Assembly (NCBI GenBank): GCA_016214285.1 | Contig: JACROV010000079.1 | Span: 6,855-70,854, forward strand | Direction: 5' to 3' | Length of the DNA: 64,000 nt | Source: Candidatus Omnitrophota bacterium | Lineage (GTDB): Bacteria; Omnitrophota; Gorgyraeia; Zapsychrales; Zapsychraceae | Made by a program: the position numbers and the translations under genes | Notes under the pieces: generated by a model | Told to the model about the DNA's origin: nothing | Databases searched by the model: none | Seen by the model: the letters and a program-made list of their open reading frames with translations, nothing else | Shown here: positions 6,592 to 47,302 of the stretch, in pieces | Layout of the letters: each line of letters opens with the position of its first letter | Numbering within the stretch: the stretch's first letter is position 1

Positions 6592-7635
6592 ATGACATTA
6601 CTGTTCATCCGCAGCCTGTTCGTGATTATGAGCGGGGTCGTCGGGTATTACATTGGCATGCTCGTCCAGTATCCGCTTTTGGGAACGGAGCTGGGCTGTT
6701 TGGGCGGTTTGACCATTATTTTCATTGAGCACCGGTTGCAGCGCGTTTCGGTGAAGGGTTTATCGAGCATGGTTTTCGGCCTGCTCTTAGGTATCTTCAT
6801 GGCCAAATTGCTCTCTGATATTATTGCCTTGCTGCCGCTGGGGGAATTTGTCCATTCCATTTTACGGGTCGTGTTGACGCTGGTCTTTTCTTATTTCGGG
6901 GCGGTCATGGCGCTGCGCGGCAAGGATGAATTCAACGTGATCATCCCTTACGTGCGCTTCAAGCGCCAGGATGTGCGCGGCGAGGACGTCTTGCTCGACA
7001 CCAGCGCCATCATCGACGGCAGGGTTGTCGATATTTGCAAAACGAACTTTCTGACGGGGCGGCTCGTCGTGCCCCGCTGTGTCCTTCAGGAATTGCAAAA
7101 GATCTCCGATTCCGCCGATGACATCAAACGCGAACGCGGCCGGCGCGGCATGGAATTGCTGCGTCATATGCAAAAAGATTCCAGGATCGAGATCCATGTC
7201 CACGAAGAGGATTTGCCGGATATCGACAATGTGGATGAGAAGCTGGTCAAGCTCGCCCGGATGATGGATGCGCGTATTTGCACGACGGATTTTAATTTGG
7301 GCCGCATCGCCGTATTGCAGGGGGTTGAAGTTTTAAACATCCATGAACTGGTCAACGCGGTGAAATCCGTTGTCCTGACCGGGGAGAGGCTGGAGGTGAG
7401 GCTGGTGCGGGAAGGCAAAGAACCCGGCCAGGCCGTCGCCTTTCTGGAGGACGGCACGATGATCGTGGTCGGCGACGCCCAGAAATTGATCGGCAAAAAA
7501 GTCACCGTCGCCGTGACCTCGGTTTTACAGACGCAGGCCGGTAAAATGATCTTCGCCAGGCTTCCGATAGGCTCCCTTCGGCCAAAGGCTCCTCCCCCTC
7601 GGGGGACCTCTGGCCGCGGGGAGGAGGAGAAATGA
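6592..7635 (+). CDS. yacL: YacL-like membrane protein with PIN and TRAM domains
   Basis: N-terminal TM helices, a PIN domain and a C-terminal TRAM-like beta domain. Its position between radA and ispD matches Firmicutes. Confidence 0.75.
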   Translation: MTLLFIRSLFVIMSGVVGYYIGMLVQYPLLGTELGCLGGLTIIFIEHRLQRVSVKGLSSMVFGLLLGIFMAKLLSDIIALLPLGEFVHSILRVVLTLVFSYFGAVMALRGKDEFNVIIPYVRFKRQDVRGEDVLLDTSAIIDGRVVDICKTNFLTGRLVVPRCVLQELQKISDSADDIKRERGRRGMELLRHMQKDSRIEIHVHEEDLPDIDNVDEKLVKLARMMDARICTTDFNLGRIAVLQGVEVLNIHELVNAVKSVVLTGERLEVRLVREGKEPGQAVAFLEDGTMIVVGDAQKLIGKKVTVAVTSVLQTQAGKMIFARLPIGSLRPKAPPPRGTSGRGEEEK

Positions 7636-8327
7636 CAACAAAAGCCATTATTGCCGCGGGCGGTTTGGGAACGCGTTTAAAGACGATCCACCCAAAGCCG
7701 CTGGTCATGCTCAACGGTAAACCGCTTCTTGCCTACAGCGTTGAGGTCTTCGACAAATTCCCCTTGATCGACGGTATTATTATCGTTACGCATGAATACC
7801 ATGTCCTGGACGTGGAGGACGTGGTCCGGCATTATAACCTTCAGAAAATAGAGCGTATCGTCATCGGCGGCGAAACGCGTTCGGCCTCCGTTTATAACGG
7901 CCTGCGCGAAGCCGGGGAGAAGACGGATATCGTGGTCATCCACGACGGGGCCAGACCGCTCATCAAGGCCCAGACGATCCAGAAGGCCATTGAGCAATGT
8001 AAAATTCACGGGGCGGCCGTCGTCGGTGTTAAGGTCAAGCCCACGATCAAGAGGGTCGATCCTCTGAGTTTATTTGTGCGCGAGACATTGAACCGCGGCG
8101 AACTTTGGGAGATCCAGACTCCGCAGGTATTTAACCGTGAGCTTCTTTTAAAAGCTTATGCCCAAAAGGGTGCTGAAGATCCCACCGATGACGCTGGCCT
8201 GGTCGAGCGTATGGGTGTTCCGGTCAAGGTCGTTGAGGGCGATTATGAGAATATCAAGATCACGACCAATGAAGACCTGGTTTTGGCCGAAGCGTTCTTG
8301 AGCGCCCGCGCGAATATCCTAGTATAG
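7632..8327 (+). CDS. ispD: 2-C-methyl-D-erythritol 4-phosphate cytidylyltransferase
   Basis: N-terminal AIIAAGGLGTRL motif and IspD family similarity throughout. Confidence 0.9.
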   Translation: MTTKAIIAAGGLGTRLKTIHPKPLVMLNGKPLLAYSVEVFDKFPLIDGIIIVTHEYHVLDVEDVVRHYNLQKIERIVIGGETRSASVYNGLREAGEKTDIVVIHDGARPLIKAQTIQKAIEQCKIHGAAVVGVKVKPTIKRVDPLSLFVRETLNRGELWEIQTPQVFNRELLLKAYAQKGAEDPTDDAGLVERMGVPVKVVEGDYENIKITTNEDLVLAEAFLSARANILV

Positions 8328-8970: not shown

Positions 8971-8996
8971 GTCATATTTAAGAGCCAGGAGCAGGT

Positions 8997-9677
8997 ATGA
9001 CGTTTCTTTTTACGCTGGTTTTGATTTTCTTCGCGTGGGCGCTGATCATTTTTGTCTTTTTCAAGGCGGAGATCCAGTCCACCAAAGAGAGGGATCCGGC
9101 CGCCCGCGGGATCGCGGAGATCGTGCTTTTATACCCGGGGCTTCACGCGGTCGTGGCTCATCGGATCAATCATTTCCTCTGGAAAATGAAGATACCGCTT
9201 TTACCCAGGGCATTGTCCCAGTTGACGCGTTTTTTTACCGGTATCGAGATCCACCCTGGAGCAGAGATCGGCAAGGGACTTTTTATCGACCACGGCATGG
9301 GTGTCGTCGTCGGCGAAACGGCCATTGTCGGGGATAACGTTACGCTGTTTCAGGGGGTCACCCTGGGAGGCACGGGCAAGGAAACCGGCAAGCGGCATCC
9401 GACGATCGGCAATAATGTGGTCATCGGCGCCGGCGCCAAGGTCTTGGGCAATATTACCGTCGGCGGCAACAGTTACGTCGGTGCCAACGCGGTCATTATC
9501 CGGGACGTTCCCTCCAACGCCACGGTGGTCGGTGTCCCGGGCCATGTCACCAAACAAGAAGGTAAAAAGATGGATCTGCTGATGGACCATGTCCATACTT
9601 CGGATCCGGTGATGCAGCATATGAAAGATCTGGTCCGGCGGGTCAAGACGCTCGAAGATAAAACCCCGGGGCAATAG
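8997..9677 (+). CDS. cysE: Serine O-acetyltransferase
   Basis: SATase N-terminal region plus a hexapeptide-repeat left-handed beta-helix. Confidence 0.85.
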
Positions 9678-9699: not shown

Positions 9700-11106
9700 A
9701 TGACGATTCGCATTGTTAATTCTCTTACCAGGAGAAAAGAAGAGCTTGTGCCGTGTGACGGCAAGATCATCCGCATGTACTCCTGCGGGGTGACGGTCTA
9801 TGACCGCTGCCATATCGGGCACGCCCGCAGTCTGTATGTCTTTGATGTTATCCGGCGCTATCTTAAGTATCGCGGCTTTGATGTCAAGTTTGTCCGCAAC
9901 ATCACCGATGTCGACGATAAAATCATCAATAAAGCCCGGGAAACCGGGAGAAAGTTCGTGGATGTCGTCGCGGAAAATATCGCGGCCTATCAGGCGGACT
10001 TGAAAAGCCTCGGTATCCCGCCGGCGGATATCGAGCCGCGCGCCACCGAAAATATCCCGGAGATGATCAAGGACATCCAGGGCTTGATCCAGAAAGGATT
10101 TGCTTATACGGCCAATGGCGAGGTGTATTACGATGTGCGCAAATTCAAGGATTACGGAAAGCTCTCCGGTCAGAGTGTTGATAAAATGATGGAAGCGGTA
10201 CGCATCGAGCAGGATCAGAAAAAAAAGGACCCGCTCGATTTCGCCCTTTGGAAGAAATCCAAGGAGGATGAACCGTTCTGGGAAAGTCCGTGGGGCCGCG
10301 GAAGGCCGGGCTGGCACATCGAATGTTCCTGCATGAGCCTAAAGCATCTTAAGTGCGAGACTTTGGACATTCACGCCGGCGGGCGCGATCTGATCTTTCC
10401 CCATCATGAAAACGAGATCGCCCAGGCGCAGCCGCTGACGAACAAACCTTTCGCCAGATGCTGGATCCATCACGGGCTTTTGACCATCCAGGGACAGAAA
10501 ATGGCCAAGTCGCTGGGGAATTTCATCACTGTGCAGGACGCGCTTAAAAAATACAGCGTCGACCAGCTGAAGATGTTCTTTCTTTCCTCGCATTACGCCA
10601 GCCCCATTGATTTTTCCGGGGAAAAAATGCGGGAAACGCAAAAGGCGCTGGACCGGTTCGATGTCCTGTTCTGGAAAGCGTATCAGATGCTCGAAGGCAA
10701 AAAGCCGGTCGATCCCATCGAGGCCGAATTCATCACCAAACACCGCAATGAATTTATCGTTGCGATGGACGATGATTTTAATACGCCGATGGCACTGGGG
10801 TGTTTGTTTAATTTTATTAATGATACCAATAAATTCATCGATACGGCGCCCAAAGACGGCAATTATTTCGAAATTATTTTTCGGGCGGTCGACACGATCG
10901 AGAGTTTGTCCCGGAATATCCTGGGGTTGTTTCTTAAAGAGAAAGACAACGATCTGACGCAAGAGCAAAAGACGCTCCTGCAGCAGCGCCTGGATGCCCG
11001 AAGACAGAAGAATTTTAAACGCTCGGATGAGATCCGTGATCTGTTGAAGGAAAATGGAGTGATTGTCGAGGATACCAAAGACGGGCAGGTGTGGCGGTGG
11101 GCATGA
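9700..11106 (+). CDS. cysS: Cysteine--tRNA ligase
   Basis: HIGH motif CHIGHARS, KMSKS variant KMAKS and cysteine ligands. Confidence 0.95.
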   Translation: MTIRIVNSLTRRKEELVPCDGKIIRMYSCGVTVYDRCHIGHARSLYVFDVIRRYLKYRGFDVKFVRNITDVDDKIINKARETGRKFVDVVAENIAAYQADLKSLGIPPADIEPRATENIPEMIKDIQGLIQKGFAYTANGEVYYDVRKFKDYGKLSGQSVDKMMEAVRIEQDQKKKDPLDFALWKKSKEDEPFWESPWGRGRPGWHIECSCMSLKHLKCETLDIHAGGRDLIFPHHENEIAQAQPLTNKPFARCWIHHGLLTIQGQKMAKSLGNFITVQDALKKYSVDQLKMFFLSSHYASPIDFSGEKMRETQKALDRFDVLFWKAYQMLEGKKPVDPIEAEFITKHRNEFIVAMDDDFNTPMALGCLFNFINDTNKFIDTAPKDGNYFEIIFRAVDTIESLSRNILGLFLKEKDNDLTQEQKTLLQQRLDARRQKNFKRSDEIRDLLKENGVIVEDTKDGQVWRWA

Positions 11107-13114: not shown

Positions 13115-13924
13115 GTGGATATGGGCCAAATAATACAAGTCCAGTTGGGCGAATACCGCGACGCGGATTATTATGACCTTAATGGTGTTGCCTGTGACCG
13201 CGGGGATTATGTGATCGTGGAAGTCGACCGCGGATCGGAGTTCGGCCTGGTCGTCTCCCAGGTGAGCGCCGTGTGTCCCCCGAAAACGGAAAGCAAGTCC
13301 CAGGGGCGTATCTTGCGCAAGGCGACTGAAGGCGATTTGAAGCAAATTGCCAACAACCGCACGAAGGTGCAGGACGCCATCGATAACTGCGTGAGCAAGA
13401 TCAGCGACCGCAAACTTCATATGAATATCGTCAAGGCCGAGTATACTTTTGATGCCAGCAAGATCATCTTTTTCTTTCTGGCCGACGGGCGCGTTGATTT
13501 TCGCAATCTGGTCAAAGACCTGGCGAAGGTGTTCCGCGTGCGCATCGAGCTTAAGCAGATCGGCGTGCGCGACAAGGCCAAGATCGTCGGCGGTTACGGG
13601 ATTTGCGGCCGCGAGCTGTGCTGTTCGTCTTATATGAATGGTTTCCATACGCTTTCCATCAAGATGGCCAAAGAGCAGGGGCTGCCTTTGAACCCGTCGC
13701 GTATCTCGGGGGTGTGCGGCCGCATCAAGTGCTGCATGGCTTACGAATTTCAGGTGTATAAAGAATTTTCCAAAGGCCTGCCGTCGGTCGGCGAGAAGAT
13801 CACCACCGAAGAAGGCAAGGGCAAAGTGGTCGACGTCAACATCCTCAAGCGCCTGGTCACCGTCGATGTCGGCGAAGGCAAGGTCATCAAAACTGCTTTC
13901 CCGAAAGAAGTTGGGGCCGGTTGA
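13115..13924 (+). CDS. ricT: PSP1 C-terminal domain protein YaaT/RicT
   Basis: PSP1 domain with cysteine cluster (ICGRELCC, CGRIKCC). Conserved neighbour of holB. Confidence 0.85.
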   Translation: MDMGQIIQVQLGEYRDADYYDLNGVACDRGDYVIVEVDRGSEFGLVVSQVSAVCPPKTESKSQGRILRKATEGDLKQIANNRTKVQDAIDNCVSKISDRKLHMNIVKAEYTFDASKIIFFFLADGRVDFRNLVKDLAKVFRVRIELKQIGVRDKAKIVGGYGICGRELCCSSYMNGFHTLSIKMAKEQGLPLNPSRISGVCGRIKCCMAYEFQVYKEFSKGLPSVGEKITTEEGKGKVVDVNILKRLVTVDVGEGKVIKTAFPKEVGAG

Positions 13925-13961: not shown

Positions 13962-13990
13962 CCCGCTCCGTGGCTTTCTCTTATTCGCCG
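13962..13990 (+). terminator. Rho-independent terminator after yaaT
   Basis: Hairpin gccacagggcccgctccgtggc followed by a T-rich tract. Confidence 0.6.
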
Positions 13991-14075
13991 CAGAGGCGGC
14001 GAATAACTCCAGCGTTTGATTCATTCCGAAATATCAATATTCCCGGGATGAATCAGCTGGAGTGACCACCCTTGT
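13990..14075 (+). repeat. Post-terminator repeat element, family B copy 1
   Basis: ttattcgccgcagaggcggcgaataa hairpin followed by a conserved ...ccgaaatatcaa...cccgggatgaatcagctgg block. A near-identical unit lies at 28707-28795. Confidence 0.6.
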
Positions 14076-14087
14076 TACACTTGTAAC
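14074..14087. promoter_or_regulatory. Conserved palindromic operator-like motif gttacacttgtaac (copy 1)
   Basis: Perfect 14-bp palindrome repeated at 16842-16855, where it overlaps a TTGACA-N16-TACACT promoter. Here it lies about 30 nt upstream of a small ORF with a good ribosome-binding site. Confidence 0.45.
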
Positions 14088-14113
14088 AAATTTGCTACAT
14101 GTAAGGAAGGTTA

Positions 14114-14281
14114 ATGGAAATTCTGAAGTGGTTTAAGATGTTTTTCCGTGAAAATAATAGGCGTCGATTATTGCGGCAGCAGTTAGAGAAAGAATCCAAG
14201 GTAACTCGGGCAGCCTCGCTGGAAGTACTCCACGAGATGGAAGAACTGGATGACGATTTGAACTGCGAATTCGGTCATTAA
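14114..14281 (+). CDS. Small hypothetical protein (56 aa)
   Basis: ATG with ribosome-binding site taaggaagg. Its 3' end overlaps the first GAATT hairpin. Below the 60-aa cutoff of the ORF track. Confidence 0.3.
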   Translation: MEILKWFKMFFRENNRRRLLRQQLEKESKVTRAASLEVLHEMEELDDDLNCEFGH

Positions 14282-14472
14282 TGACCGAATTTGAATTGCC
14301 CGGGCGACAGGTGAATTCAGTCGGTGCCGACTGAATTTGGACTGCCCAAGCGACAGGCAAATTCAACCGACATCGGCTGAATTCGAATTGCCCGAGACGT
14401 GAGATGAATTCCGCAGACGTCTGCGGAATTGCCCGCGGCAGGGACGCGGGGAAAAGCGGCGGAGGGAAAAGG
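14267..14472. repeat. Array D1: four GAATT-flanked 25-nt palindromic hairpins separated by (t)gaattgcccgggcgacag units, ending in a G-rich tract
   Basis: Hairpins gaattcggtcattaatgaccgaatt, gaattcagtcggtgccgactgaatt, aattcaaccgacatcggctgaatt and gaattccgcagacgtctgcggaatt. The terminal gaattgcccgcggcagggacgcggggaaaagcggcggagggaaaagg recurs at 16578 and 18011. Confidence 0.75.
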
Positions 14473-14559
14473 TGTGCGTCGCCGGAGAAACTGGCGCGCG
14501 GCCCGGCGGGATTTGGAAGAATTGGCAGGGAAAAGCATTTTCCGGGAAAGGAGAAACTT

Positions 14560-14760
14560 GTGGGCAAATATAAATTAAACAAAAAAATTGTAGTCATATC
14601 GTCTTTGGACGAAACCGATGAAAAGGATTATTGGAAGTCACGGACACCAACAGATAGATTGAAGGCCATTGAAATAAACAGGAGGATTGTATATGGATAT
14701 GCCCATACTTCCCCAAGATTTCAGAGTTTTTTTGAAGTTGCTCAACTCCAAAAGAATTGA
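14560..14760 (+). CDS. Small hypothetical protein (66 aa, GTG start), possible partner of the downstream nucleotidyltransferase
   Basis: Ribosome-binding site aaaggagaaacttGTG. The upstream portion of the listed ORF 14404..14760 covers repeats and is spurious. The 74-nt overlap with the next gene makes this call uncertain. Confidence 0.3.
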   Translation: MGKYKLNKKIVVISSLDETDEKDYWKSRTPTDRLKAIEINRRIVYGYAHTSPRFQSFFEVAQLQKN

Positions 14761-15142
14761 GTATCTGCTCATCGGCGGTTATGCCGTCGGCTATTACGGT
14801 TATCCACGCGCAACAGCTGATATGGATATATGGATCGCTATCAGCAAAGAGAACGCGAAGAAGATGACAGAAGCAATTAAGGATTTCGGCATGAAGGCTC
14901 CCGCTTTAAACGAGGGTATTTTTCTTGAGCCCGGGAAAATAATCAGGATGGGATATCCGCCGATAAGAATAGAAGTGCTGACAGAAATATCAGGAGTAAA
15001 TTTTAAACAATGCTATGCCCGGCGCGAAGAAATAAAAATTGATGGAATAAAAGTAAAAATGATATCATTGGGGGATCTTTTGAAAAATAAAAAGGCGAGT
15101 GGCCGGCATAAAGATCTAAATGATCTGGAAAATTTAAGATAA
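14687..15142 (+). CDS. Pol-beta superfamily nucleotidyltransferase (MNT/DUF6036-like), candidate TA component
   Basis: hG[GS]x9-13DxD NTase motif in LLIGGYAVGYYGYPRATADMDIWI. AT-rich relative to the genome. Confidence 0.6.
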   Translation: MYMDMPILPQDFRVFLKLLNSKRIEYLLIGGYAVGYYGYPRATADMDIWIAISKENAKKMTEAIKDFGMKAPALNEGIFLEPGKIIRMGYPPIRIEVLTEISGVNFKQCYARREEIKIDGIKVKMISLGDLLKNKKASGRHKDLNDLENLR

Positions 15143-15204
15143 CAAGCGGGTTGAGCGCTCAATTCAGACCAGGACGCTTCCGGAGTGTCCTGCGGCATTA
15201 ACAA

Positions 15205-15297
15205 GTGACGAAACTAAATGAGAAATATGTCTTCGAAATTTTACGTGACAACCCCGATTTACTACGTCAACGATAACCCGCGCATCGGGCACGCGTA
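15205..15297 (+). pseudogene. Displaced, diverged 5' fragment of metG ([26 protein letters not shown])
   Basis: About 85% nucleotide identity to the true metG start at 18634 ([26 protein letters not shown]). It ends in a stop after 30 codons. Confidence 0.7.
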
Positions 15298-15372
15298 ATG
15301 ATACCTGCCATCATCCTGTTTCTGCAAAAGAATGTTTGAGTTTTTTAAAGTGATAGTTTATAATTCTCAATA

Positions 15373-16605
15373 TGCGATTCGTTCATCGTCTCATCGAAAA
15401 TGAACTTTTAAAGGCCGCCCGCAATTTCCCGGCGATTCTCTTTGACCGGCCCGCGCCGGGCCGGGAAAACAACGCTTTTAAAAAAGTTGTTCCCCAAGGC
15501 CTCGTATTATCTCCTGGAAGACCCCGACATTGTTGCCCGCGTCCGGACTGATCCGCGTTCTTTTCTTGAAGAGATCAGGCTGCCGGTCATTCTCGATGAA
15601 ATCCAGAACGTCCCCGAACTGTTCAATTACGTGCGCGCGCGGATTGATAACGCTCCACAGAAGTTCGGACAGTGGTTTCTGACCGGGTCCCAGGAAGCCG
15701 GGCTCATGAAGGGGGTGACGGAGTCCATGGCTGGCCGCGTGGCCGTGTTTGAGCTTTTGCCGTTTTCGATAGGTGAGACATCCGGAGTTTCCATTTTTCG
15801 CGGAGGATTCCCGGAGGTTCTGGCCAGACCCCGGGCGGGCGATATCTGGTTCCGGTCGTACCTTCAGACGTATCTGGAAAGAGACGTGCGCGCGGTCAGC
15901 TCGATCAAGAGCGTGACGACATTCCGGCGTTTTTTGTCTCTGTTGGCCAGCCAGTGCGGGCAGATCCTGAACAAGACCGATCTCGCGGCCCCTTTGGGGG
16001 TGAGCGTGCCCACGTTGAGCGAATGGATCCATATCCTTGAGACCACGGGTCAGATCATCCTCGTGCCGCCTTTTTATGAAAATTTCGGCAAACGGATCAT
16101 CAAATCCCCAAAACTCTATTTTGTGGACTCCGGGTTGGCGTGTCATCTTTTGAATATCTCTTCCGAGAAAATGCTTTTTTCTTCGCCGTTTCTGGGAGCT
16201 GTCTTTGAAGGGTTCATCGCCGCGGAAATCATCAAATTCCAGATAAATACCGGCAAGAGAAAAGAGCTGTATTATTTTCGGGACCAGCAGGGCCTGGAAG
16301 TTGATTTTTTGATTCCGCAGGGGGACCGCCGGCTCATCCTTCTGGAGGCGGAGGCAACCAGGACGCTTCGGCCGCAGATGGCGGAACCCCTCAAACGGCT
16401 GGCGCACAATATCGCGCGTTACGAGGTTGAGCAGTGGGTTGTCTGTCCTGATTCCCAAAAAGGAGAACCCCTGCGCGCCTTAAGCCCGGGCACAAAGGCC
16501 CTTTCCGTGAAGGGGCTGTTGAGTGCTTTGAAGGGGCAGCTTTCCGGAACACCCGGTGCTGTCAAGGGCCGGACGGCGAATTCCACCGGCGCCGGTGGAA
16601 TTTGA
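15373..16605 (+). pseudogene. AAA_14/DUF4143-family ATPase, frameshifted near 15440
   Basis: Frame 1 from the ATG at 15373 gives MRFVHRLIENELLKAARNFPAILFDRPAPG. The P-loop TGPRRAGKTTLL continues in another frame (the listed ORF starts at TTG 15442). One extra base at about 15437-15440 separates the two frames. The C-terminus runs into the hairpin array. Confidence 0.6.
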
Positions 16606-16716
16606 ATTGCCCGGGCGACAGACGAATTGAGTCGGTGCCGACTGAATTGTAGTGTAAATTTGAATTCGTCCCGACGTATCGTCGGGACGAATTGCCCGCG
16701 GCAGGGGGGGGGGGAT
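16578..16716. repeat. Array D2: three GAATT-flanked palindromic hairpins plus a gaattgcccgcggcagg(g)n tract
   Basis: gaattccaccggcgccggtggaatt, gaattgagtcggtgccgactgaatt and gaattcgtcccgacgtatcgtcgggacgaatt, then gcccgcggcagggggggggg. Confidence 0.75.
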
Positions 16717-16821
16717 CCGACCAGAGGACACTTTGGGAGTGTCCGGCGGCGGGTGTTAAGTTGTGGTTGCCCCGGAGTTTGGTACGTCCCCGGAATCCCC
16801 TCGTTTTTAGCAGAAAATGAA

Positions 16822-16862
16822 TTGACATATGGCTGTGCCATGTTACACTTGTAACAGAATTG
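16822..16862 (+). promoter_or_regulatory. Sigma70-like promoter (TTGACA-N16-TACACT) overlapping palindrome gttacacttgtaac, upstream of the wHTH-MNT gene
   Basis: -35 TTGACA at 16822-16827 and -10 TACACT at 16844-16849. The palindrome at 16842-16855 is identical to 14074-14087. Confidence 0.5.
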
Positions 16863-16947
16863 TTACAAAGGCCGCCCTTTAATATTTCAAAGGCGAGCCT
16901 CGCCATTTCACCAAGAAAGGAAATGGCGAAAATAGCGGGAGCTTCTT

Positions 16948-17556
16948 ATGCGTTTTCATGAATCTTTTCTGAGTGTTTTAAGATCGGACTTGAAGCTGAA
17001 GATCGTCAGATTTCTGCTCGATCATCAGGCCTCCATGAGCGAGCGCGAGATCGCCGCCGTCTTGAAGATCTCCCACATGAGCGTCAACCGCACCATGCAG
17101 GAACTGGCCCAGGCGAACCTTGTCCATTACCTGACCGTGGGCAAGGCGCATCTTTGGCAAGTGAACCGCCGCAGTTTTGCTTACAAGGCCTTGCGCCGAT
17201 TGTTCATTAGTTTGGAAAAGTCCCCGGATCCCCTGGAAGAATTAAAACAGGTCCTTTTAAAGCACTTGCCGCGAGGGTTGGTCAAGAGGATCGTCTTGTT
17301 CGGTTCAGTGGCGAAGGCTTCGGAGGGACCCCAGAGCGATATTGACGTCTTTATACTGGTCAATGATGCCCAAGGTCAACAGAGGCTTGAGGCGGCTATT
17401 GAAAAACTTTCTAATGAATGCCTGGAGGTTTTTGGGAACAGGCTGTCCCCGTATATTCTCACCGAAGGGCAATATAAACAAAGGCGGGATTCAGGTATTA
17501 TTGCCCAGGTCGAACAGGGGATTCAGATCTATCCCAACGGCAAGGCCGTGTCATGA
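16948..17556 (+). CDS. Winged-helix DNA-binding domain fused to a minimal nucleotidyltransferase (MNT antitoxin-like)
   Basis: MarR/ArsR-like N-terminal HTH. C-terminal NTase motif LFGSVAKASEGPQSDIDVFILV. Its stop overlaps the start of the HEPN gene. Confidence 0.7.
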   Translation: MRFHESFLSVLRSDLKLKIVRFLLDHQASMSEREIAAVLKISHMSVNRTMQELAQANLVHYLTVGKAHLWQVNRRSFAYKALRRLFISLEKSPDPLEELKQVLLKHLPRGLVKRIVLFGSVAKASEGPQSDIDVFILVNDAQGQQRLEAAIEKLSNECLEVFGNRLSPYILTEGQYKQRRDSGIIAQVEQGIQIYPNGKAVS

Positions 17557-17963
17557 CGTCTAAATTCAAAACAAGGGATGTGGGTAAGGCCCATTACGCC
17601 AATTTTTTGAAAAAGGCGGAAGAGTGTTTTCACGCGGCGCGGAATTCCTTCGCGGCTCAGGAATGGAACGCCGCGGCCATCAACGCCATTCATTGCGCTA
17701 TTGCCGCCTGCGACGCGATGTGCGTTTATTTTTTGGGCAAGCGCCACTCGGGTGAAGACCATAATGACGCGGCAGGGTTGTTCAAGGCCATCCGCCACGA
17801 TGAAGAGATCAATACCAACGCGAACCGGATTTTGAGGATTTTACGCATGAAAAGTATGGCGGAATATGAAGAGCGGCTGGTCTATAAATCCGAGGCCGAG
17901 AAGGTCCTGAAGGACTGCGAACGGTTTTGGGAGTTTGTGCAGGAACAGCTGCCTAAAGGCTGA
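17553..17963 (+). CDS. HEPN domain protein (toxin-like partner of the MNT)
   Basis: Rx4-6H motif GKRHSGEDH in a ~136-aa alpha-helical protein. It overlaps the MNT gene by 4 nt. Confidence 0.65.
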   Translation: MTSKFKTRDVGKAHYANFLKKAEECFHAARNSFAAQEWNAAAINAIHCAIAACDAMCVYFLGKRHSGEDHNDAAGLFKAIRHDEEINTNANRILRILRMKSMAEYEERLVYKSEAEKVLKDCERFWEFVQEQLPKG

Positions 17964-17972
17964 TGCTTAACC

Positions 17973-17997
17973 CCCGGCAACACCGGGTGTTGCCGGG
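17973..17997. repeat. GGCAACACCGGGTGTTGCC palindromic element, family E copy 1 (intergenic)
   Basis: Perfect 25-bp palindrome cccggcaacaccgggtgttgccggg. Other copies at 24383-24403 (inside alr) and 61947-61975 (inside lnt). Confidence 0.8.
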
Positions 17998-18010
17998 GCC
18001 GGGCGGACAG

Positions 18011-18122
18011 CGAATTCAGTCGACGTCGACTGAATTTGAATTCGTCAGATATCTGACGAATTCGCCAGCTAGCTGGCGAATTGCCCGCGGCAGGGGTGCT
18101 GGAAAGCGGCAGAGGGGAAAGG
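18011..18122. repeat. Array D3: two GAATT-flanked palindromic hairpins plus a gaattgcccgcggcagggg... G-rich tract
   Basis: cgaattcagtcgacgtcgactgaatt and gaattcgtcagatatctgacgaattc, then gccagctagctggcgaattgcccgcggcaggggtgctggaaagcggcagaggggaaagg. Confidence 0.75.
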
Positions 18123-18169
18123 TACACGTTTACGGGGAATATCGGTACAGAAATACATTGGATATCCAG

Positions 18170-18637
18170 ATGAAGAAGCCAGTAATTCAGTTAGAGCGTA
18201 CAGGTTGTGGTATCGCGAGCGTGGCTGCGATCGTCGGTTTCTCTTACCTGAAAATGAAGTCGATCGCGAATTCTTTGGGTGTCTTTGCGCATGACGAGAC
18301 TTTGTGGTCGAACCCGTCTCACGTGCGGAAGTTGTTGAGGCGTTTCGGCGTGAGAGCTGGCTCACGTGAAATACCTTTCCGCTCTTGGGAGACGCTTCCT
18401 GATCTTGCACTGTTGTCGATCAAGTGGCATCTTGAGAAAGGCCGTCCTTATTGGCATTGGGTAGTGTTCGTTCGAGAAAATGGGCGATCCTATGTGCTGG
18501 ATTCAAAAAAGCGTCTGCGTAGCAACGTCAGAACGGACTTTGGGCGTATGAAGCCAAAATGGTATATCCCGGTCATTGATGTCCAGCAATGCGTTCAATG
18601 CGATCGCGCCGGCAATAATAGACAGATAGAATCATGA
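18170..18637 (+). CDS. Peptidase C39-like (papain-fold) domain protein
   Basis: Catalytic-Cys context QLERTGCGIASVAAI and His context WHWVVFV. The real start MKKPV is about codon 70 of listed ORF 17963..18637, whose N-terminus is repeat DNA. The coordinate may be off by one. Confidence 0.55.
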   Translation: MKKPVIQLERTGCGIASVAAIVGFSYLKMKSIANSLGVFAHDETLWSNPSHVRKLLRRFGVRAGSREIPFRSWETLPDLALLSIKWHLEKGRPYWHWVVFVRENGRSYVLDSKKRLRSNVRTDFGRMKPKWYIPVIDVQQCVQCDRAGNNRQIES

Positions 18638-20154
18638 AGACTCCATTTTACGTCACAACTCCTATCTATTACGTCAACGATAATCCACACATCGGGCACG
18701 CGTACACGACGATCCTTGCTGATGTTTTGGCGCGTTACCACCGTAACGAGGGCGATGAAGTCTTTTTCCTGACGGGTCTGGATGAGCACGGGCAAAAGGT
18801 CCAGCAGGCGGCGCAGAAGCGTGGAGTTCCCGAGCAGCAGCATTGCGACGAGCTCGCGCCGCGGTTTTCCGACCTTTGGAAGAAGCTCGAGATCCAGAAC
18901 GACGATTTTATCCGCACCACCGAGCCGCGGCATATCAAGGCCGTCCAGGCCGCGCTGCAGAAAGTGTATGACGCGGGGGACGTTTATACGGATGAATACG
19001 AAGGCTGGTACTCGGTCGCTGAGGAACGGTTCATCACCGATACCGAGAAAGATTCCGGACATTTCCGCGACGTTAAAAAACTAAAGGAGCGCAATTATTT
19101 CTTCAAGATGAGCAAATATCAGCAAAAGCTCATCGACTATATCAACGCCCATCCGGAATTTATCCAGCCCGAACATCGCAAGAATGAGGTCTTGGGATTT
19201 TTACGCCAGCCGCTGGGGGACCTGTGCATCTCGCGTCCCAAATCGCGCATGGGCTGGGGCATCGAGATTCCTTTTGATAAAGAGTATGTCACCTATGTCT
19301 GGTTCGACGCGCTGATCAATTACATCACGGCATCGGGATATTTGGTAGATGAGAAAGAATTCAAGAAGTGGTGGCCGGCGTCGGTCCATTTGATCGGCAA
19401 AGACATTTTGACGACCCACGCGGTGTACTGGCCGACGATGCTTTTTTCATTGGGGCTGCCGCTGCCGAAAACCATCTTTGCCCACGGCTGGTGGCTCATC
19501 GGCGAAACGAAAATGAGCAAGTCGTTGGGGAATGTCGTTGATCCTTTAAGTTTGGTTGACCAATACGGCGTTGACCCGGTGCGCTATTACCTGATGCGCG
19601 AGATGGTCCTGGGGCAGGACGCCAATTTCACCATGGAATCGTTCATCAAACGCTACAACAGCGACCTGGCGAATGATTTCGGGAATCTTTTGAATCGTGT
19701 CAGTGGTCTTATTGGAAAATATTTTGACGGCTGCGTTCCCAAAGAAGGTCAGGCGTGGGCGCCGGATAAGGAGATCAGGAAGGTTGCCGACGGGCTGGCC
19801 AAGAATATCGAAGAGTTGATCAATGGCATGCGCGTCCACGAGGCCCTTGAACAGGTTTTGGTGTTGATCCGCAACACCAACGTGTATATGGAACACCAGG
19901 CGCCTTGGAAAGAGGCGAAAGAGAATTTGGAACGGGCGGGAACGATCCTTTATACAGCAACGGAGGCGCTGCGCGTCAGCGCGATTCTGCTTCTTCCGGT
20001 TATGCCCGCGAAGGCGAATACGGTTTTAGAGATTTTAGGAGCGGTGGGGACAGAGCCGTGCTGGGGGCAGCTCAAGGCCGGGGCAAAATTACAAAGCCAC
20101 GACGCGCTTTTCCCGCGATTAGACGCTGAAGGCAAGGTTATAACTAAGAGTTGA
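18634..20154 (+). CDS. metG: Methionine--tRNA ligase (short form)
   Basis: HIGH motif (PHIGHAYT), KMSKS, connective-peptide zinc-knuckle region and an anticodon-binding domain. No C-terminal EMAP domain. Confidence 0.95.
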   Translation: [506 protein letters not shown]

Positions 20155-23770: not shown

Positions 23771-23971
23771 ATGATAAAAATTAGAGAGTTGGAGAAGGGC
23801 GTGTTAAGCCTGCCGGATAAATACTTTGCCCGGTTCAGGGCCTGGTTTCATAAACTTGAGGCGGAAAGATGGGACAAGCAGTTTGAACAAGATGCCGCCT
23901 CCGGCAAACTGGAGCATCTGGCCGTCAAAGCACGCCAGGATTTCGCAAAAGGAAAATGTAAAGAGTTATGA
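23771..23971 (+). CDS. Putative antitoxin (66 aa) of the RelE/ParE module
   Basis: Small gene whose stop overlaps the start of the toxin gene by 4 nt. Confidence 0.5.
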   Translation: MIKIRELEKGVLSLPDKYFARFRAWFHKLEAERWDKQFEQDAASGKLEHLAVKARQDFAKGKCKEL

Positions 23972-24222
23972 GGCATTTTGCCGATCCTTCTTTTTGGAAT
24001 TGTTATCGTAGACTCCCCAAGCATATACGGCAACTGGCCGACAAGAATTTTGTACTCCTCAAAGAAAATCCTCACCATACGTCCCTGCACTTGAAAAAAG
24101 TCCGTAAGTACTGGTCGGTCAGAATCGGCATCAAATATCGGGCTTTGGGCGTTGAAGTCGCGGGAGGAGTGGTGTGGTCCTGGATAGGCACGCATGCGGA
24201 GTATGGCAAGCTGGTGAAATAG
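23968..24222 (+). CDS. RelE/ParE-family type II toxin
   Basis: ParE/RelE fold signature ...WSVRIGIKYRALGVEV..VVWSWIGTHAEY. Confidence 0.7.
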   Translation: MRHFADPSFWNCYRRLPKHIRQLADKNFVLLKENPHHTSLHLKKVRKYWSVRIGIKYRALGVEVAGGVVWSWIGTHAEYGKLVK

Positions 24223-24294
24223 CAATTCCCGCCCGTGGGCGGGAATTCGAATTAACGCCGGCCGATACCAATTGACAGAGGGCAAATTAAGAAA

Positions 24295-25446
24295 ATGAAT
24301 AAACATTTAACTTGGGCACAGATTGATTTAAGCGCCATCCGGCATAATTTTCGGGTGCTACAACGGCTGGCGGGAATACCCACGGCAACACCCGGTGTTG
24401 CCGCGGGTTCGGGGAAAGTGAAAATCCTCGCCGTCATCAAGGCGGACGCGTACGGCCACGGGATGCTGGTCGCGAAGGTTCTCGTTAAAGAGAAGGTGGA
24501 TTTTATCGGGCTATCGAATCTGACCGAAGGGATCGCTTTACGCGAGGCAGGCATCAAAACGCCGGTCCTTTTGTTTGAAACGACCCTCGCTGAACAAGCC
24601 CAAAATATTATTGACTACGAGCTGACCCCGACGATATGCACGCATGAATTGGCCGCGGCGTTGAACCGCTACGCGCAGAAACGTAAGCGCGTGGTGGATA
24701 TCCACGTCAAGGTCGATACCGGCATGGGGCGCCTGGGCGTCTGGCATGAAGAGGCTTTGGATTTTATAAAGAAATTAAGCCGTCTGCGGAATTTGCGGGT
24801 CCAGGGGATCTGCACCCATTTCCCGTCGGCGGATACGGACCAGGCGTTCACGCGCCGTCAGATCAGAGATCTGGAGAATTTAGTTTCGCGGCTTAAAGCC
24901 GGAGGGCTTCATGCTCTTTACGTCCACGCGGCCAACAGCATGGGGCTGGTTGGATATCCGAACAAGATTTTGAATCTCGCGCGGCCGGGATTGATGCTCT
25001 ACGGCCTGTATCCGCGTCCGGGATTGGAAGAGAAAGTCAATTTGCGCCCGGCGATGAGTATCCATTCGAAGATCATCTTTTTAAAGCGCATTGAAAAGGG
25101 AAGAAGCATCAGTTACGGCCGGACGTTTATCGCCTCGCGGCCTATGACGGTCGCGACCTTGCCGATCGGTTACAGCGATGGATATCTGCGCGGACTCTCC
25201 GGCAAGGCGGACGTTCTTGTCGGCGGCCAGCGTTGTCCGGTTCTGGGCCGTGTCACCATGGACCAGATCGTTGTTGATGTTTCCAAGATTAAAAATCCTC
25301 GGCTGGGGATGCCGGTTGTCATTTTAGGAAAGCAAGGGAAAGAGGAAGTCTGCGCTTATGAGCTCGCCCAACTCGTCCGTACGATCAATTACGAGATCGT
25401 CTGCAGCCTCGGGAGCCGCTTGCCGAGGTTGTATAAAAAAGCTTGA
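24295..25446 (+). CDS. alr: Alanine racemase
   Basis: PLP-lysine motif VIKADAYGHG and a C-terminal beta domain. Carries an in-frame 21-bp palindrome insertion (TATPGVA) at 24383-24403. Confidence 0.9.
   Translation: MNKHLTWAQIDLSAIRHNFRVLQRLAGIPTATPGVAAGSGKVKILAVIKADAYGHGMLVAKVLVKEKVDFIGLSNLTEGIALREAGIKTPVLLFETTLAEQAQNIIDYELTPTICTHELAAALNRYAQKRKRVVDIHVKVDTGMGRLGVWHEEALDFIKKLSRLRNLRVQGICTHFPSADTDQAFTRRQIRDLENLVSRLKAGGLHALYVHAANSMGLVGYPNKILNLARPGLMLYGLYPRPGLEEKVNLRPAMSIHSKIIFLKRIEKGRSISYGRTFIASRPMTVATLPIGYSDGYLRGLSGKADVLVGGQRCPVLGRVTMDQIVVDVSKIKNPRLGMPVVILGKQGKEEVCAYELAQLVRTINYEIVCSLGSRLPRLYKKA
24383..24403. repeat. Family E palindrome copy 2, in-frame inside alr
   Basis: cggcaacacccggtgttgccg encodes ..TATPGVA.. 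. The alr N-terminal linker is about 8 aa longer than in E. coli Alr at this position. Confidence 0.75.
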
Positions 25447-28674: not shown

Positions 28675-28708
28675 AAGCCCTGAACCAGAACATGGTCCAG
28701 GGTTTTTT
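28675..28708 (+). terminator. Rho-independent terminator
   Basis: gccctgaaccagaacatggtccaggg followed by TTTTTT. Confidence 0.65.
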
Positions 28709-28795
28709 ATTCGCCGCAGTGGCGGCGAATAACCCCCCAGCGCTTGATTTATCCCGAAATATCAAGATCTCCGGGATGAATCAGCTGGGGTGAGC
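28707..28795 (+). repeat. Post-terminator repeat element, family B copy 2
   Basis: ttattcgccgcagtggcggcgaataacccccc agcgcttgatttatcccgaaatatcaagatctccgggatgaatcagctgggg. Matches 13990-14075. Confidence 0.6.
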
Positions 28796-41842: not shown

Positions 41843-44623
41843 ATGAATGAATCGCAAACCCGTAAAGAATATATTAACAAAGCCTTGGCCAGGGCCCAAT
41901 GGACCCCCAATGGGTCCTGCCGGTACACCGAAGAATTTGAAATGGACAAGGTTTGGAGTTCCGGCATTGCCGAACCAACGACACCCTATGGCGCAAGCCA
42001 TGAATATGCCGATTATTTATTGCTTGGACGTGATGAACAACCGCTCGCCATTGTTGAAGCTAAAAGAACCACTAAAAATGCGCGCATAGGCCAGCAGCAA
42101 GCCAAGGGCTACGCCGAAAATATCAAAGCCAAATTCGGCATCGAACCATTTATATTTCTGACCAACGGAGAAGATATTTTATTTTGGGACCGCCAGCGAT
42201 ATCCTCCCCGCCTTGTTTACGGATTTTTTGAACGAAGGGATTTAGAGCGGCTCTATTTCCAACGACAGGAAGCCGCCCAAAATTTTTCCGGCATCAAAAT
42301 CAATCCCGAGATCGCTGATCGCGATTATCAAGCTGAAGCCATCCGTACCGTATTAACGGGAATACAAAACGGCCGCCGCAAGTTTCTATTAGTCATGGCC
42401 ACGGGTACCGGAAAAACGCGTACGACCATGGCCATCATCGATTGTCTTTTAAGAGCCAAGCGCATTAATACCGTTTTATTCTTAACAGACCGTAAAGTCC
42501 TTCGTGATCAGGCCTACGGTAAAAAAGGATATCAGGGATTTTTCAGCGAAAGTTGCGGTAGAATTACATCCGGAAAATTTAACGCGGAAAAGCGTCTTTA
42601 CGCGGCCACCATCCAGACGATGATGGAGTGTTACAAAGACATTTCGCCGGGTTTCTTTGATCTGGTGATTGCGGATGAGTGCCATCGCTCCATTTACAAC
42701 AAATGGAAAGATGTTTTATCCTATTTTGATGCCCTTCAGATTGGCCTGACCGCCACACCTGCCCAGTTTATTGAAAGAGATACCTTCCGTTATTTTGAAG
42801 TGGACTTAAAAAATCCTAAAGACAACCTTTTTAATTATTCGTATGAAAAGGCTGTTGATGAAAAACATTTACTTCCCTTTGTTCCCTACCACGCCAAAAC
42901 GTCTTTTCAGATCAAGGGGCTGCGAGAAGACGAAATCCCTCTGGCAGTTAAAAAGAAATTAGTAGAAGAGGGCAAAACCCTCGATGAATTAAACTTCGAA
43001 GGAACCGAGTTTGAAAAACGCTTTACCAATACCGGCACCCACGAGGCCATGGTCCGGGAATTTATGGAGGTTTGTTATAAAGACGATACCGGAACGTTGC
43101 CCGGTAAAACCATCATCTTTGCGATGACGAAGAATCACGCTTACCGCTTATTGGATGCCTTTGATCAGCTCTATCCCCAGTATAAGGGAAGACTCGCCGA
43201 GGTTATCGTTTCCGAAGATTCGCGGGCGGATAATTTTCTTGGGCGTTTTGAAAATGACAGCTATCCCAGGATCGCTATCTCGGTGGACATGCTCGACACG
43301 GGTATCGATATCAGAGAAGTTACCAATTTGGTCTTTGCCAAACCGGTCTTCAGCAAGATCAAATTCTGGCAGATGATCGGCCGCGGGACACGCACCCTCG
43401 ACAAGAACAATATGAAGCTCTGGTGCCCGCAGAAAGAGAATTTTTTGATCATCGATCACTGGAATAATTTCGAATATTTCGGCGAGAAACCGGAAGGAGA
43501 AGTCCCTCCCATGGAGGACGCCGTTACCTCGCGCGTGTTTAAAGTCAAAGTTAACCGTTTACGGTTTTACCTTCATCGCTTGGATCAGAAAGAAATCGAA
43601 GGCGTCAAAAAAGAGCTGCGAGATATGATCGCAAAACTCCCCCAGGATTCCATCAGCGTTAAAGAAAGAAAAGATGTCCTACAAAGACTGGCGAGTCCTC
43701 AATTCTGGACCAATGTGGATACCGACTATTTGTATGATCACGTGGCCCCTTTGATGCGTTTTTTGGAAGATATCAATTACAACGAATATTCCTTTATTCT
43801 GAAGTGTGAACAGCTTGAACTGGCATTTCTTAATAAAGATGAGCGCAGAATTCTTGATCTCAAAGACGCTGTTAAAGACGATTTGCAATTGTTGCCCATG
43901 ACGCTTCAAGTCGTCAAGCGTGAACAAGAAACGGTCTTCAAGACCGCCTCTGACGCCTTTTGGAGTGGTCTTTCGATCGAAGGCATCCGTGAGGCCAAAC
44001 AAAAATTGTCGCCAATTATGAAATATAAACGCCAGAATCCGCGTGAAATCATTCAATTCGATCTGGATGACCAGATCATTGAGCGCAAATGGATCGAGTT
44101 CGGGCCCAACGGCGAAGGGGCGTATGTCCACATTTATAAAGAAAAGGTCGAAAGGCGGGTCAAAGAATTGGCGGATAAAGAGTCGGCCATTATTAAGATC
44201 TGTAATGATGAACCGGTCAATGACCATGACCTGGAGGCCCTCGAAAATACTTTGAACGGGCCGGAGCTGTATATCACGGAAGATAAATTACGTGAGGCCT
44301 ACAGCCAGCCGTCGGGGACTTTGGTTCAATTTATTAAATCAATTTTCGGCAAATACAAATTTAAAAGTCAGGAAGACCAGATCGCCGAAAGCTTTGACGC
44401 GTTTATCATTGCGCACAATTACAATACCGACCAGACGCGTTTTTTGCGCGTCATCAAAAGTGTATTCCTGGCCAAGATCCGCCGCCATGAATTGCTGGAA
44501 ATCGACGATTTCTACGAAGGGCCGGTGAAGGAATTAGGCGGAGACATCGCCGACCACCTTTTTTCGAAGCAACAAATGGATGAAGTTATTGAATTCTGCA
44601 ATGAGCGGGTACTGGTGAAATGA
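41843..44623 (+). CDS. hsdR: Type I restriction enzyme R subunit
   Basis: HSDR_N nuclease domain, SF2 helicase motifs (MATGTGKT, DECHRS) and a C-terminal domain. AT-rich. Confidence 0.85.
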   Translation: MNESQTRKEYINKALARAQWTPNGSCRYTEEFEMDKVWSSGIAEPTTPYGASHEYADYLLLGRDEQPLAIVEAKRTTKNARIGQQQAKGYAENIKAKFGIEPFIFLTNGEDILFWDRQRYPPRLVYGFFERRDLERLYFQRQEAAQNFSGIKINPEIADRDYQAEAIRTVLTGIQNGRRKFLLVMATGTGKTRTTMAIIDCLLRAKRINTVLFLTDRKVLRDQAYGKKGYQGFFSESCGRITSGKFNAEKRLYAATIQTMMECYKDISPGFFDLVIADECHRSIYNKWKDVLSYFDALQIGLTATPAQFIERDTFRYFEVDLKNPKDNLFNYSYEKAVDEKHLLPFVPYHAKTSFQIKGLREDEIPLAVKKKLVEEGKTLDELNFEGTEFEKRFTNTGTHEAMVREFMEVCYKDDTGTLPGKTIIFAMTKNHAYRLLDAFDQLYPQYKGRLAEVIVSEDSRADNFLGRFENDSYPRIAISVDMLDTGIDIREVTNLVFAKPVFSKIKFWQMIGRGTRTLDKNNMKLWCPQKENFLIIDHWNNFEYFGEKPEGEVPPMEDAVTSRVFKVKVNRLRFYLHRLDQKEIEGVKKELRDMIAKLPQDSISVKERKDVLQRLASPQFWTNVDTDYLYDHVAPLMRFLEDINYNEYSFILKCEQLELAFLNKDERRILDLKDAVKDDLQLLPMTLQVVKREQETVFKTASDAFWSGLSIEGIREAKQKLSPIMKYKRQNPREIIQFDLDDQIIERKWIEFGPNGEGAYVHIYKEKVERRVKELADKESAIIKICNDEPVNDHDLEALENTLNGPELYITEDKLREAYSQPSGTLVQFIKSIFGKYKFKSQEDQIAESFDAFIIAHNYNTDQTRFLRVIKSVFLAKIRRHELLEIDDFYEGPVKELGGDIADHLFSKQQMDEVIEFCNERVLVK

Positions 44624-45660: not shown

Positions 45661-45723
45661 GGTAAAAAGCCTATTAAGTAGGTAATTTTATATATAAATA
45701 CCCTATTTTTATGGAGGATATTC

Positions 45724-47223: not shown

Positions 47224-47302
47224 AGCTGACTTCATGAAAAAAGAATGAGAATGCGAGATCGGTTCAGGGAGCAGATGAGAAGATAAATGTCTTATATTTT
47301 AC

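Follow-up and report, generated by a model that had tools for sequence, protein, structure and literature searches.

The stretch of DNA analysed here, 64,000 nucleotides from a Candidatus Omnitrophota bacterium (contig JACROV010000079.1; hereafter the window), contains an island of small accessory gene cassettes whose junctions are marked by arrays of short palindromes. The flanks of the island are housekeeping genes, with holB and yaaT/PSP1 (13115-13924) before it and metG (18634-20154), mtnA, thiL, tsaE, tsaB and alr after it. Direct reading together with a script scan located three palindrome arrays (14267-14480, 16566-16714 and 17999-18129) as well as a lone unit at 24224-24247. The first-pass annotation, made from the letters alone, had described three hairpin arrays with GAATT termini at the module boundaries of the metG-adjacent island; the arrays and their placement are both borne out, but the fourth, single-unit site had been missed.

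The basic unit is a 24-nt palindrome of the form AATT(C)-N14-(G)AATT, and 11 units are present in the window, all of them intergenic or at the ends of open reading frames (ORFs) and either 24 or 31 nt in size. Successive units are 20, 26 or 46 nt apart, while GAATT itself recurs with a regular spacing of 20, 24 or 26 nt. Tandem Repeats Finder reports a period of 46 in array 1, which corresponds to one palindrome plus the linker GAATTGCCCGGGCGACAG, and a period of 20 in array 3, where neighbouring palindromes directly share an AATT. The linker TGAATTGCCCGGGCGACAG does stand between palindromes, as had been described, but it is not a separate 20-nt unit: it is itself framed as a 24-nt AATT...AATT unit (AATTGCCCGGGCGACAGGTGAATT), whose last AATT is the first AATT of the next palindrome. 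Each array is closed by the same 18-nt terminal unit, GAATTGCCCGCGGCAGGG, which occurs exactly three times in the window and is followed each time by a G-rich tail, just as the first reading had it; a lead-in of the GCCGGaCGGC type opens arrays 2 and 3. When the window and its relatives are taken together, a full array consists of an optional GGCAACACC-GGTGTTGCC hairpin, the lead-in GCCGGaCGGC, a first palindrome that is very often GAATTC-AGTCG-NNNN-CGACT-GAATT, optional further palindromes or linkers in the 24-nt AATT frame, a last palindrome, and then the terminal unit and a G-rich tail, for which GGTAYRCGT is the usual ending. The positions of these parts and of the neighbouring cassettes are collected in the table.

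Features of the yaaT-metG island and the tsaB-alr gap (window coordinates)
Feature	Position	Strand	Details
Array 1	14267-14480	+	palindromes 14268-14291, 14314-14337, 14360-14383 (1 mismatch), 14407-14430
Array 1, linkers	14294-14317, 14340-14363, 14386-14410	+	24/25 nt, AATT-framed, alternating with the palindromes
Array 1, end	14426-14480	+	terminal unit GAATTGCCCGCGGCAGGG 14426-14443; G-rich tail 14444-14480 ending GGTGTGCGT
Array 2	16566-16714	+	lead-in GGGCCGGACGGC 16566-16577; palindrome 16579-16602; linker 16605-16628; palindrome 16625-16648 (1 mismatch)
Array 2, remainder		+	linker GTAGTGTAAATTTG; 31-nt palindrome 16663-16693; terminal unit 16689-16706; G11 run to 16714
Array 3 with preceding hairpin	17972-18129	+	GGCAACACC hairpin 17972-17998; lead-in GCCGGGCGGACAGC
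Array 3, palindromes	18013-18036, 18039-18062, 18059-18082	+	last two with a common AATT
Array 3, end	18078-18129	+	terminal unit 18078-18095; G-rich tail 18096-18129 ending GGTACACGT
Lone palindrome	24224-24247	+	24 nt, AATTCCCGCCCGTGGGCGGGAATT, then CGAATT; directly 3' of the two-gene toxin-antitoxin-like cassette
Operator-like palindrome	14073-14100		TTGTTACACTTGTAACAAATTTGCTACA; just upstream of the 55-aa remnant ORF
Antitoxin remnant	14114-14281	+	55-aa ORF resembling the RHH antitoxin C-terminus of L011/L019; stop codon inside the first palindrome
Cassette B	14561-15142	+	small ORF and DUF2204/DUF6036 nucleotidyltransferase (14687-15142)
Displaced metG leader and 5' fragment	15172-15298	+	leader hairpin 15172-15190; 26-codon metG 5' fragment 15218-15298 ending GGGCACGCGTA, junction, a
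Cassette C	15336-16605	+	own promoter 15336-15364; frameshifted AAA_14/DUF4143 ATPase 15372-16605
metG leader hairpin copy	16726-16744	+	GGACACT-TTGGG-AGTGTCC; downstream of array 2
Cassette D	16822-17963	+	promoter and operator 16822-16870; HTH-MNT nucleotidyltransferase 16948-17556; HEPN 17553-17963
Cassette E	18170-18637	+	155-aa protein, no Pfam match; overlaps metG start; no own promoter
Two-gene toxin-antitoxin-like cassette	23771-24222		in the tsaB-alr gap, by insertion (second hot spot)

The arrays are real and far beyond chance. Perfect 24-mers make up 7 of the 11 units, against about 0.004 expected in 64 kb (64000 x 4^-12), and shuffled windows gave 0-4 loose hits and not one perfect one. 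Array 1 has 9 occurrences of GAATT in 206 nt, the whole 64 kb has 164, and single-strand folding of the arrays yields z-scores of -5.7 to -7.2 relative to shuffled sequence. All 11 units sit at two accessory junctions; none was found in the other ~50 kb of the window, a type I restriction-modification (R-M) island included.

The family extends beyond the window. A scan for the 18-mer through a genome collection with one genome per species (596 Gb) returned 26 loci, four of which (L011, L017, L019 and L022, all from Omnitrophota-type metagenome-assembled genomes, MAGs) are true members, the other 22 being chance-like matches in coding sequence where some 17 were expected by chance. A stricter pattern applied to metagenomes added L027/L034, L028/L035 and L031, and look-ups through yaaT and HEPN homologues added L039-L046, L055, L060 and L061. 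Arrays are thereby known from L011/L040, L017/L027/L034, L019/L028/L035, L022, L031, L055, L060 and L061, that is, from at least eight related Omnitrophota assemblies. The search in related genomes and metagenomes that the first-pass annotation had recommended thus found homologues elsewhere, and the arrays are therefore not confined to the three sites it listed. The array-bearing species share 83-91% identity with the window across yaaT and metG DNA (L019, 75%) and make up a roughly genus-level clade of groundwater Omnitrophota. The terminal 18-mer is identical in six species whose core genes are 75-91% identical. In every relative the array lies at a cassette junction in the yaaT-metG or the tsaB-alr gap, the latter carrying hairpins in L040 and L055 as well, and the cassettes at these junctions are of the MNT-HEPN, RHH-MazF, MNT-HepT, nucleotidyltransferase and small membrane-protein kinds. 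The empty yaaT-metG gaps of two more distant relatives, L057 and L058, contain no array; blastn against plasmid and phage collections gave no match to the arrays, and two pattern scans of viral contigs produced three chance hits or none. Two simpler descriptions were tried and rejected. The arrays are not a native metG leader, as they are missing from the empty gaps of L057 and L058 and as an array occurs in L019 without metG behind it, and they do not simply travel with the MNT-HEPN cassette family, whose homologues at 73-77% identity in other lineages have no such hairpins.

Comparison of these assemblies demonstrates, at the level of sequence, that cassettes have been exchanged horizontally between species: the window and L031 are 95.3% identical in cassette B and ~85% in their core genes, and L040 and L019 share 84.8% identity in the MazF cassette against 74.7% in yaaT. 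Homology between species also ends within arrays. Behind the HEPN cassette, the window, L040, L055 and L061 all have the GGCAACACC hairpin, then the lead-in and the same first palindrome, but the palindromes that come next are not the same; for cassette B, the window and L061 have the same tail but differ in the palindromes before the terminal unit. The 3' position of the array and the co-orientation of the cassettes fit an integron-like plan; the left edges of the cassettes, however, are inexact and vary between contexts, the homology of the MazF cassette beginning inside its promoter. Of the three functions that the first-pass annotation had considered, cassette recombination sites are thus the best supported, by the breaks inside arrays and by cassettes more conserved than the core. 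Yet since the cassette edges are imprecise and no recombinase is linked, these data do not establish an integron-type site.

The 5' end of metG has been a target as well. The segment 15172-15298, with its displaced leader hairpin and metG fragment, is the left copy of a target duplication that arose when the block 15299-18633 was inserted and supplied metG with a new 5' end. L031 has its cassette B within a duplication that takes in the array, the leader and the first 65 nt of metG (metG' at 8981-9047, the real metG at 9927); the duplication in the window is independent of it, having a different junction, directly after GGGCACGCGTA. Insertions fall within the first ~65-78 nt of metG, at the codons of the HIGH motif, and the duplications in L031 and the window indicate that blocks entered the metG 5' end and carried a substitute for it along. 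Downstream of array 2, the leader hairpin copy is followed by a decayed stretch that resembles the metG 5' end and terminates in GGTACGTCCCCGGAAT, and several of the G-rich tails resemble decayed copies of the metG leader, which fits serial insertion leaving one array per event.

The stems of the palindromes vary in a characteristic way, as seen in a gap-free alignment of the 30 distinct 24-mers among the 38 units found in the window and its relatives. Paired cells amount to 95.8% across these 30 units, cells in which both partners have changed number 88, compared with 22.6 in shuffles, and each of positions 6-12 shows as many as four types of Watson-Crick pair. The symmetry runs through the very centre: pair 11:14 is formed in 28 of the 30 units and pair 12:13 in 27 (19 Watson-Crick and 7 G-U), neither pair having played any part in the selection of units. 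The two central pairs of a hairpin are unable to pair. Mismatches in the stems, read from the listed units, are without G-U bias (3 T-G, ~5 A-C, 3 G-G and 1 A-G). Among orthologous units there are compensated changes (AGTCGACGTCGACT vs AGGCGGCGCCGCCT, behind HEPN genes that are 90% identical; GTCAGATATCTGAC vs ATCAGATTTCTGAT; CGCAGACGTCTGCG vs AGCAGACGTCTGCT) and also inverted centres (GTGC vs GCAC; AACCGACATCGGCT vs AGCCGATGTCGGTT). The palindromes change about three times faster than the adjacent genes and yet retain symmetry through the centre. The metG leader hairpin, by contrast, has undergone substitutions only to G-U-type pairs. Complementarity through the very centre, the lack of G-U bias and the compensated or flipped orthologues together point to a process acting on DNA as the source of stem symmetry. 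Two earlier papers describe template switching as homogenising the arms of inverted repeats and inverting their spacers (PMC8604942, PMC7202029); such switching during replication would account for the perfect arms, the central complementarity and the inverted centres seen here.

We tentatively favour, while stopping short of even confidence in it, a reading in which the arrays would be a mosaic of palindromes, similar to the bacterial interspersed mosaic elements (BIMEs) built from repetitive extragenic palindromes (REPs), that would serve as a recombinogenic 3' boundary of horizontally exchanged cassettes, the palindromes being kept perfect by template switching. How the cassettes recombine, how the palindromes are maintained and what they do on RNA we infer as follows. 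Toxin-antitoxin and other accessory cassettes would pile up in two hot spots, the yaaT-metG and tsaB-alr gaps, with the lead-in module, the 18-nt terminal unit and the repeated GAATT junctions, all of them short and portable, as the crossover points. Ordinary recombination or slippage, with no linked dedicated enzyme, would join, exchange, duplicate and delete cassettes and single palindromes, and every serial insertion at metG would leave one more array and a decaying leader upstream, so that the arrays would come to separate the modules. During replication the palindromes would extrude as hairpins, whereupon intra-strand template switching would homogenise their arms and invert their centres, and they would stay perfect while their sequence drifts. 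On a polycistronic RNA they would form 10-bp stem-loops which, being devoid of U-tracts, would let transcription continue into promoterless cassettes and metG, and which may also act as barriers to decay or processing.

Several considerations weigh against this reading. The role in recombination rests on mosaic patterns in ~9 related assemblies, all at the same two loci, and homologous recombination works poorly on 18-46 nt of identical sequence. Template switching accounts for the upkeep of the palindromes, not for their existence. No arrays were found at the accessory region 57.3-59 kb (an ATPase and an MNT-like gene) or in the R-M island. The main weakness is twofold: the 18-nt unit is invariant across 15-25% core divergence, which is more than passive portable homology would obviously need and may betray a dedicated partner, protein or RNA; and the constant AATTC/GAATT feet, like the fixed size of 24 nt, suggest recognition by some factor. 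It is this recognition-like 18-mer and fixed size that keep several other explanations alive.

The arrays might instead act on RNA, as clusters of intercistronic stem-loops on a yaaT-cassette-metG transcript that stabilise it, buffer translation or processing, or attenuate it, their link with cassette junctions reflecting a position in 3' untranslated regions; we consider this unlikely, though less so than the other alternatives. The arrays are co-oriented with all genes and stand at cassette 3' ends, and they are probably transcribed, since the cassettes at 14561 and 18170, like metG, have no recognisable promoter. Their predicted folds are strong, and the adjacent metG leader hairpin shows the G-U-type substitutions typical of RNA structure. 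The array stems, however, lack any such bias and are complementary through two central pairs that a hairpin leaves unpaired, and a function on RNA would leave the invariant 18-mer, the AATT phasing and the mosaic breakpoints unexplained. The proposal of the first-pass annotation that the arrays are insulating terminators finds no support: an intrinsic terminator has a G+C-rich stem with a U-tract directly behind it, but there is no U-tract and no terminator-like call inside any array, although the same scan called the yaaT terminator at 13958, and transcription apparently has to run through the arrays to reach the promoterless genes and metG. Rfam, searched with the whole window at the gathering threshold and permissively with 13.9-18.7 kb, returned nothing meaningful (best E-values 0.06-0.1, to unrelated families and with scores far short of gathering), in agreement with the earlier impression of an unrecognised repeat class. 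RNA repeats of type III toxin-antitoxin systems (ToxI-like), which are nearly identical direct repeats of ~34-45 nt in tandem just ahead of the toxin gene, were rejected because the units differ in sequence, follow toxin genes and have no Rfam match. ORFs do cross the terminal unit and tail of array 3 (17963-18637) and of array 1 (14404-14760), in frame with the downstream genes and both encoding ...IARGR.AGK...; the arrays are nevertheless not taken as coding sequence, because a 2-nt indel separates the two tails.

A dedicated site comparable to the attC sites of integrons, at which an unlinked recombinase would read the AATTC/GAATT feet and the 18-nt core on folded strands or cruciforms, with metG and the tsaB-alr gap as attachment sites, strikes us as distinctly improbable. 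The resemblance is real enough. In Vibrio VCRs, and in CALIN clusters that lack an integrase, attC is likewise a structured 3' site with conserved ends and a variable middle, behind co-oriented cassettes; integron cassettes are rich in toxin-antitoxin genes with their own promoters, and their sites too are variable in sequence and conserved in structure. Here, similarly, the core is invariant across species, the stems vary while structure and ends remain constant, the same cassettes recur in different contexts and species, some with their own promoters and others without, as in sedentary chromosomal integrons, and insertion into the metG 5' end restores the gene. But no tyrosine, serine or HUH recombinase was found within 8-13 kb at ~10 loci or anywhere in the 64-kb window. 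An attC site consists of one imperfect palindrome, 57-141 nt long, which has R''/L''-L'/R' boxes and a GTTRRRY core, takes its strand and orientation from extrahelical bases and is recombined at exact positions by an adjacent IntI, whereas a junction here has one to four independent, short and mostly perfect 24-nt palindromes and an 18-nt terminal unit, inexact edges, no R/L boxes or GTTRRRY core on direct reading and, in the perfect palindromes, no cue to strand or orientation. The intI/attI/Pc platform of an integron is likewise missing, the neighbours being holB, yaaT, metG, mtnA, thiL, tsaE, tsaB and alr, with no integrase among them. We rate no higher the bolder version of this idea, a novel integron-like cassette-capture platform that would be anchored at the metG 5' end and tsaB-alr, with an unlinked enzyme working on tandem 24-bp palindromes and an 18-bp core; the variable self-complementary stems may, in such a platform, be structure-only or address elements. 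The sole transposase in the window, of the IS4-family DDE type (47319-48527, minus strand; terminal repeats at 47300-47318 and 48604-48622), was rejected as the source of the arrays, its terminal repeats (TACCAGTACTGTCCGGTTA) being unrelated to them; its gene sits between hsdM and hsdS in the low-GC (0.39-0.46) type I R-M island at 41843-52900 (HsdR, Fic, HsdM and HsdS), which has no arrays.

That the arrays are ordinary REP elements, dispersed by a RAYT-like (Y1 HUH) transposase whose gene lies elsewhere, with the hot spots merely permissive intergenic space, seems to us very unlikely, even though the likeness on which our preferred BIME-like reading draws is considerable. REPs and BIMEs are extragenic stem-loop palindromes of ~20-40 nt, set head-to-tail behind genes in clustered mosaics with short conserved linkers and capable of forming hairpins or cruciforms, and in Enterobacteria and Pseudomonas rearrangements and insertions are known to cluster at them; the arrays share this organisation, and fixed-sequence hairpin families are present as well (GGCAACACC-GGTGTTGCC three times, TTATTCGCCGC...GCGGCGAATAA twice). 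A REP, however, is one or a few conserved sequences in hundreds of dispersed copies, with a foot of the GTAG type and a RAYT of its own. In the arrays the stems are not the same from one unit to the next, 30 of 38 units being distinct with no single consensus; only 5-nt feet, (G)AATTC rather than a GTAG-type 5' tetranucleotide, are constant; and the units, of fixed 24-nt length and mostly perfect, are confined to cassette junctions, at just two places in 64 kb. No Y1/HUH (RAYT) gene was found in the window or in the flanks of the ~10 loci. Perfect symmetry is atypical of the sites of IS200/IS605 elements and RAYTs, as it is of HUH substrates in general.

Least probable of all, and in our view a remote possibility, is a binding array for a sequence- or shape-specific DNA-binding protein (a nucleoid, partition or arm-type factor, or an orphan GAATTC methyltransferase) reading GAATT feet about two helical turns apart: the local density and regular spacing of GAATT and the DNA-level symmetry of the centre would suit it, but a foot-reading dimer needs no self-complementary inner 14 nt, no candidate protein is conserved beside the arrays, and GAATTC is neither depleted nor otherwise unusual elsewhere in the window.

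Other known systems share single traits with the arrays. A CRISPR array has identical direct repeats of 23-55 nt, unique spacers of similar length between them, a leader and cas genes. The CRISPR-like look noted by the first-pass annotation is indeed only a look, for the constant part is just AATT or a degenerate linker, the variable parts are self-complementary and the window has no cas genes. The pdif/Xer modules of Acinetobacter plasmids are also small, often toxin-antitoxin modules with ~28-bp inverted-repeat sites and an unlinked housekeeping recombinase, but dif-like sites have conserved 11-bp arms around a 6-bp spacer and are most conserved in the inner arm bases, whereas the array units are 24 bp without a spacer, stand in tandem and vary in their inner bases, only the outer AATTC being fixed; an Xer/dif-like site was rejected accordingly. 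Elements of the SXT/R391-in-prfC type resemble the metG insertions in entering and replacing the 5' end of an essential gene (here its first ~65-78 nt), bringing an element-borne leader and 5' end and leaving a dead 5' fragment upstream; those elements, however, are large and encode an integrase, while the inserts here are 0.7-3.4 kb and have no recombinase. In the minimal mobile elements of Neisseria, accessory cassettes are swapped between core genes without mobility genes, and inverted-repeat hairpins lie at gene ends; Neisseria uptake sequences, though, are one fixed 10-12-mer, and the array palindromes have no constant motif longer than GAATTC. The indels are compatible with a target-site-duplication model, with 20-nt inserts at AATT, and equally with slippage between GAATT repeats. 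In the literature on Omnitrophota integrons, palindromes, toxin-antitoxin systems and cassettes we found no description of this repeat class, and the arrays are best filed as an undescribed one, an extragenic palindromic mosaic with integron-like placement.

Some features of the cassettes themselves deserve mention. The reading frame of the cassette C ATPase runs into the first palindrome of array 2, and the gene is frameshifted near 15440 by an extra T in ATTCTCTTTGACC (15372-15551 / 15442-16605), which puts the P-loop out of frame with the ATG start; it is either a pseudogene or an assembly error. The protein encoded at 18170-18637 had been labelled C39-like, a label that Pfam does not confirm. 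An operator-like palindrome (TGTTACACTTGTAACA...TTGTTACA) overlaps cassette promoters at 14073-14100 and 16843-16870 in the window and also at 7226-7243 of L022 and 4351-4368 of L049, and a related sequence, TGTAACATATATGTTACA, lies upstream of an MNT-HEPN pair in an unrelated lineage; this operator-like palindrome, unlike the arrays, thus travels with the cassette. In L061 (~6960-7120) the HEPN gene of the same cassette is broken by an insert of ~150 nt that is rich in short inverted repeats and has the look of a miniature inverted-repeat transposable element.

Further small hairpins occur in the window and at related loci. The family (A)CCNCGGCAACACC(C/G)GGTGTTGCCG... has copies at 24378-24408 in alr and 61947-61975 in lnt (apolipoprotein N-acyltransferase), both in frame and both encoding the peptide TATPGVA, reminiscent of the Rickettsia palindromic elements found in coding genes; its third copy is the hairpin that opens array 3 (17972-17998). 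The hairpin TTATTCGCCGCAG(A/T)GGCGGCGAATAA is present in two near-identical copies, at 13981-14006, just past the yaaT terminator, and at 28707-28732, and is a fixed-sequence, REP-like element distinct from the variable 24-mers. The empty yaaT-metG gap of L058 holds a different element with long inverted repeats (9880-9970; GATTCCCGCTTTCGCGGGAA ... TTCCCGCGAAAGCGGGAATC), and small elements seem to be drawn to this gap in other lineages as well. L055 has a perfect palindrome of 32 nt, ATGTAGGGGCACAAAATTTTGTGCCCCTACAT, in the interval from mtnA to thiL (7791-7822). Finally, an Elusimicrobia MAG (L007, 3826-3900) contains the exact 18-mer between two direct repeats of GGCGAGCAAGGGG, ~35 nt downstream of the 25-nt palindrome ATGGTGTCACAAATTGTGACACCAT; this copy may be due to chance or be a distant relative.

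Omnitrophota are an uncultivated phylum of ultra-small cells, and the biology of their mobile elements is little known. If it is true that cassettes join and exchange at the arrays, these bacteria would stockpile toxin-antitoxin and defence cassettes beside essential genes without any integron machinery. We know of no enzyme that acts on this repeat class; the arrays would be highly interesting if a cognate one exists, and are moderately so as they stand. They also offer a natural example of palindrome evolution, in which fast drift goes together with retained symmetry, a pattern that fits self-correcting evolution by template switching. It shows as well that 'compensatory' changes need not imply that an RNA fold is under selection. 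For metagenomes, the 24-nt AATT frame together with the invariant 18-mer makes a simple signature by which such hot spots may be located.

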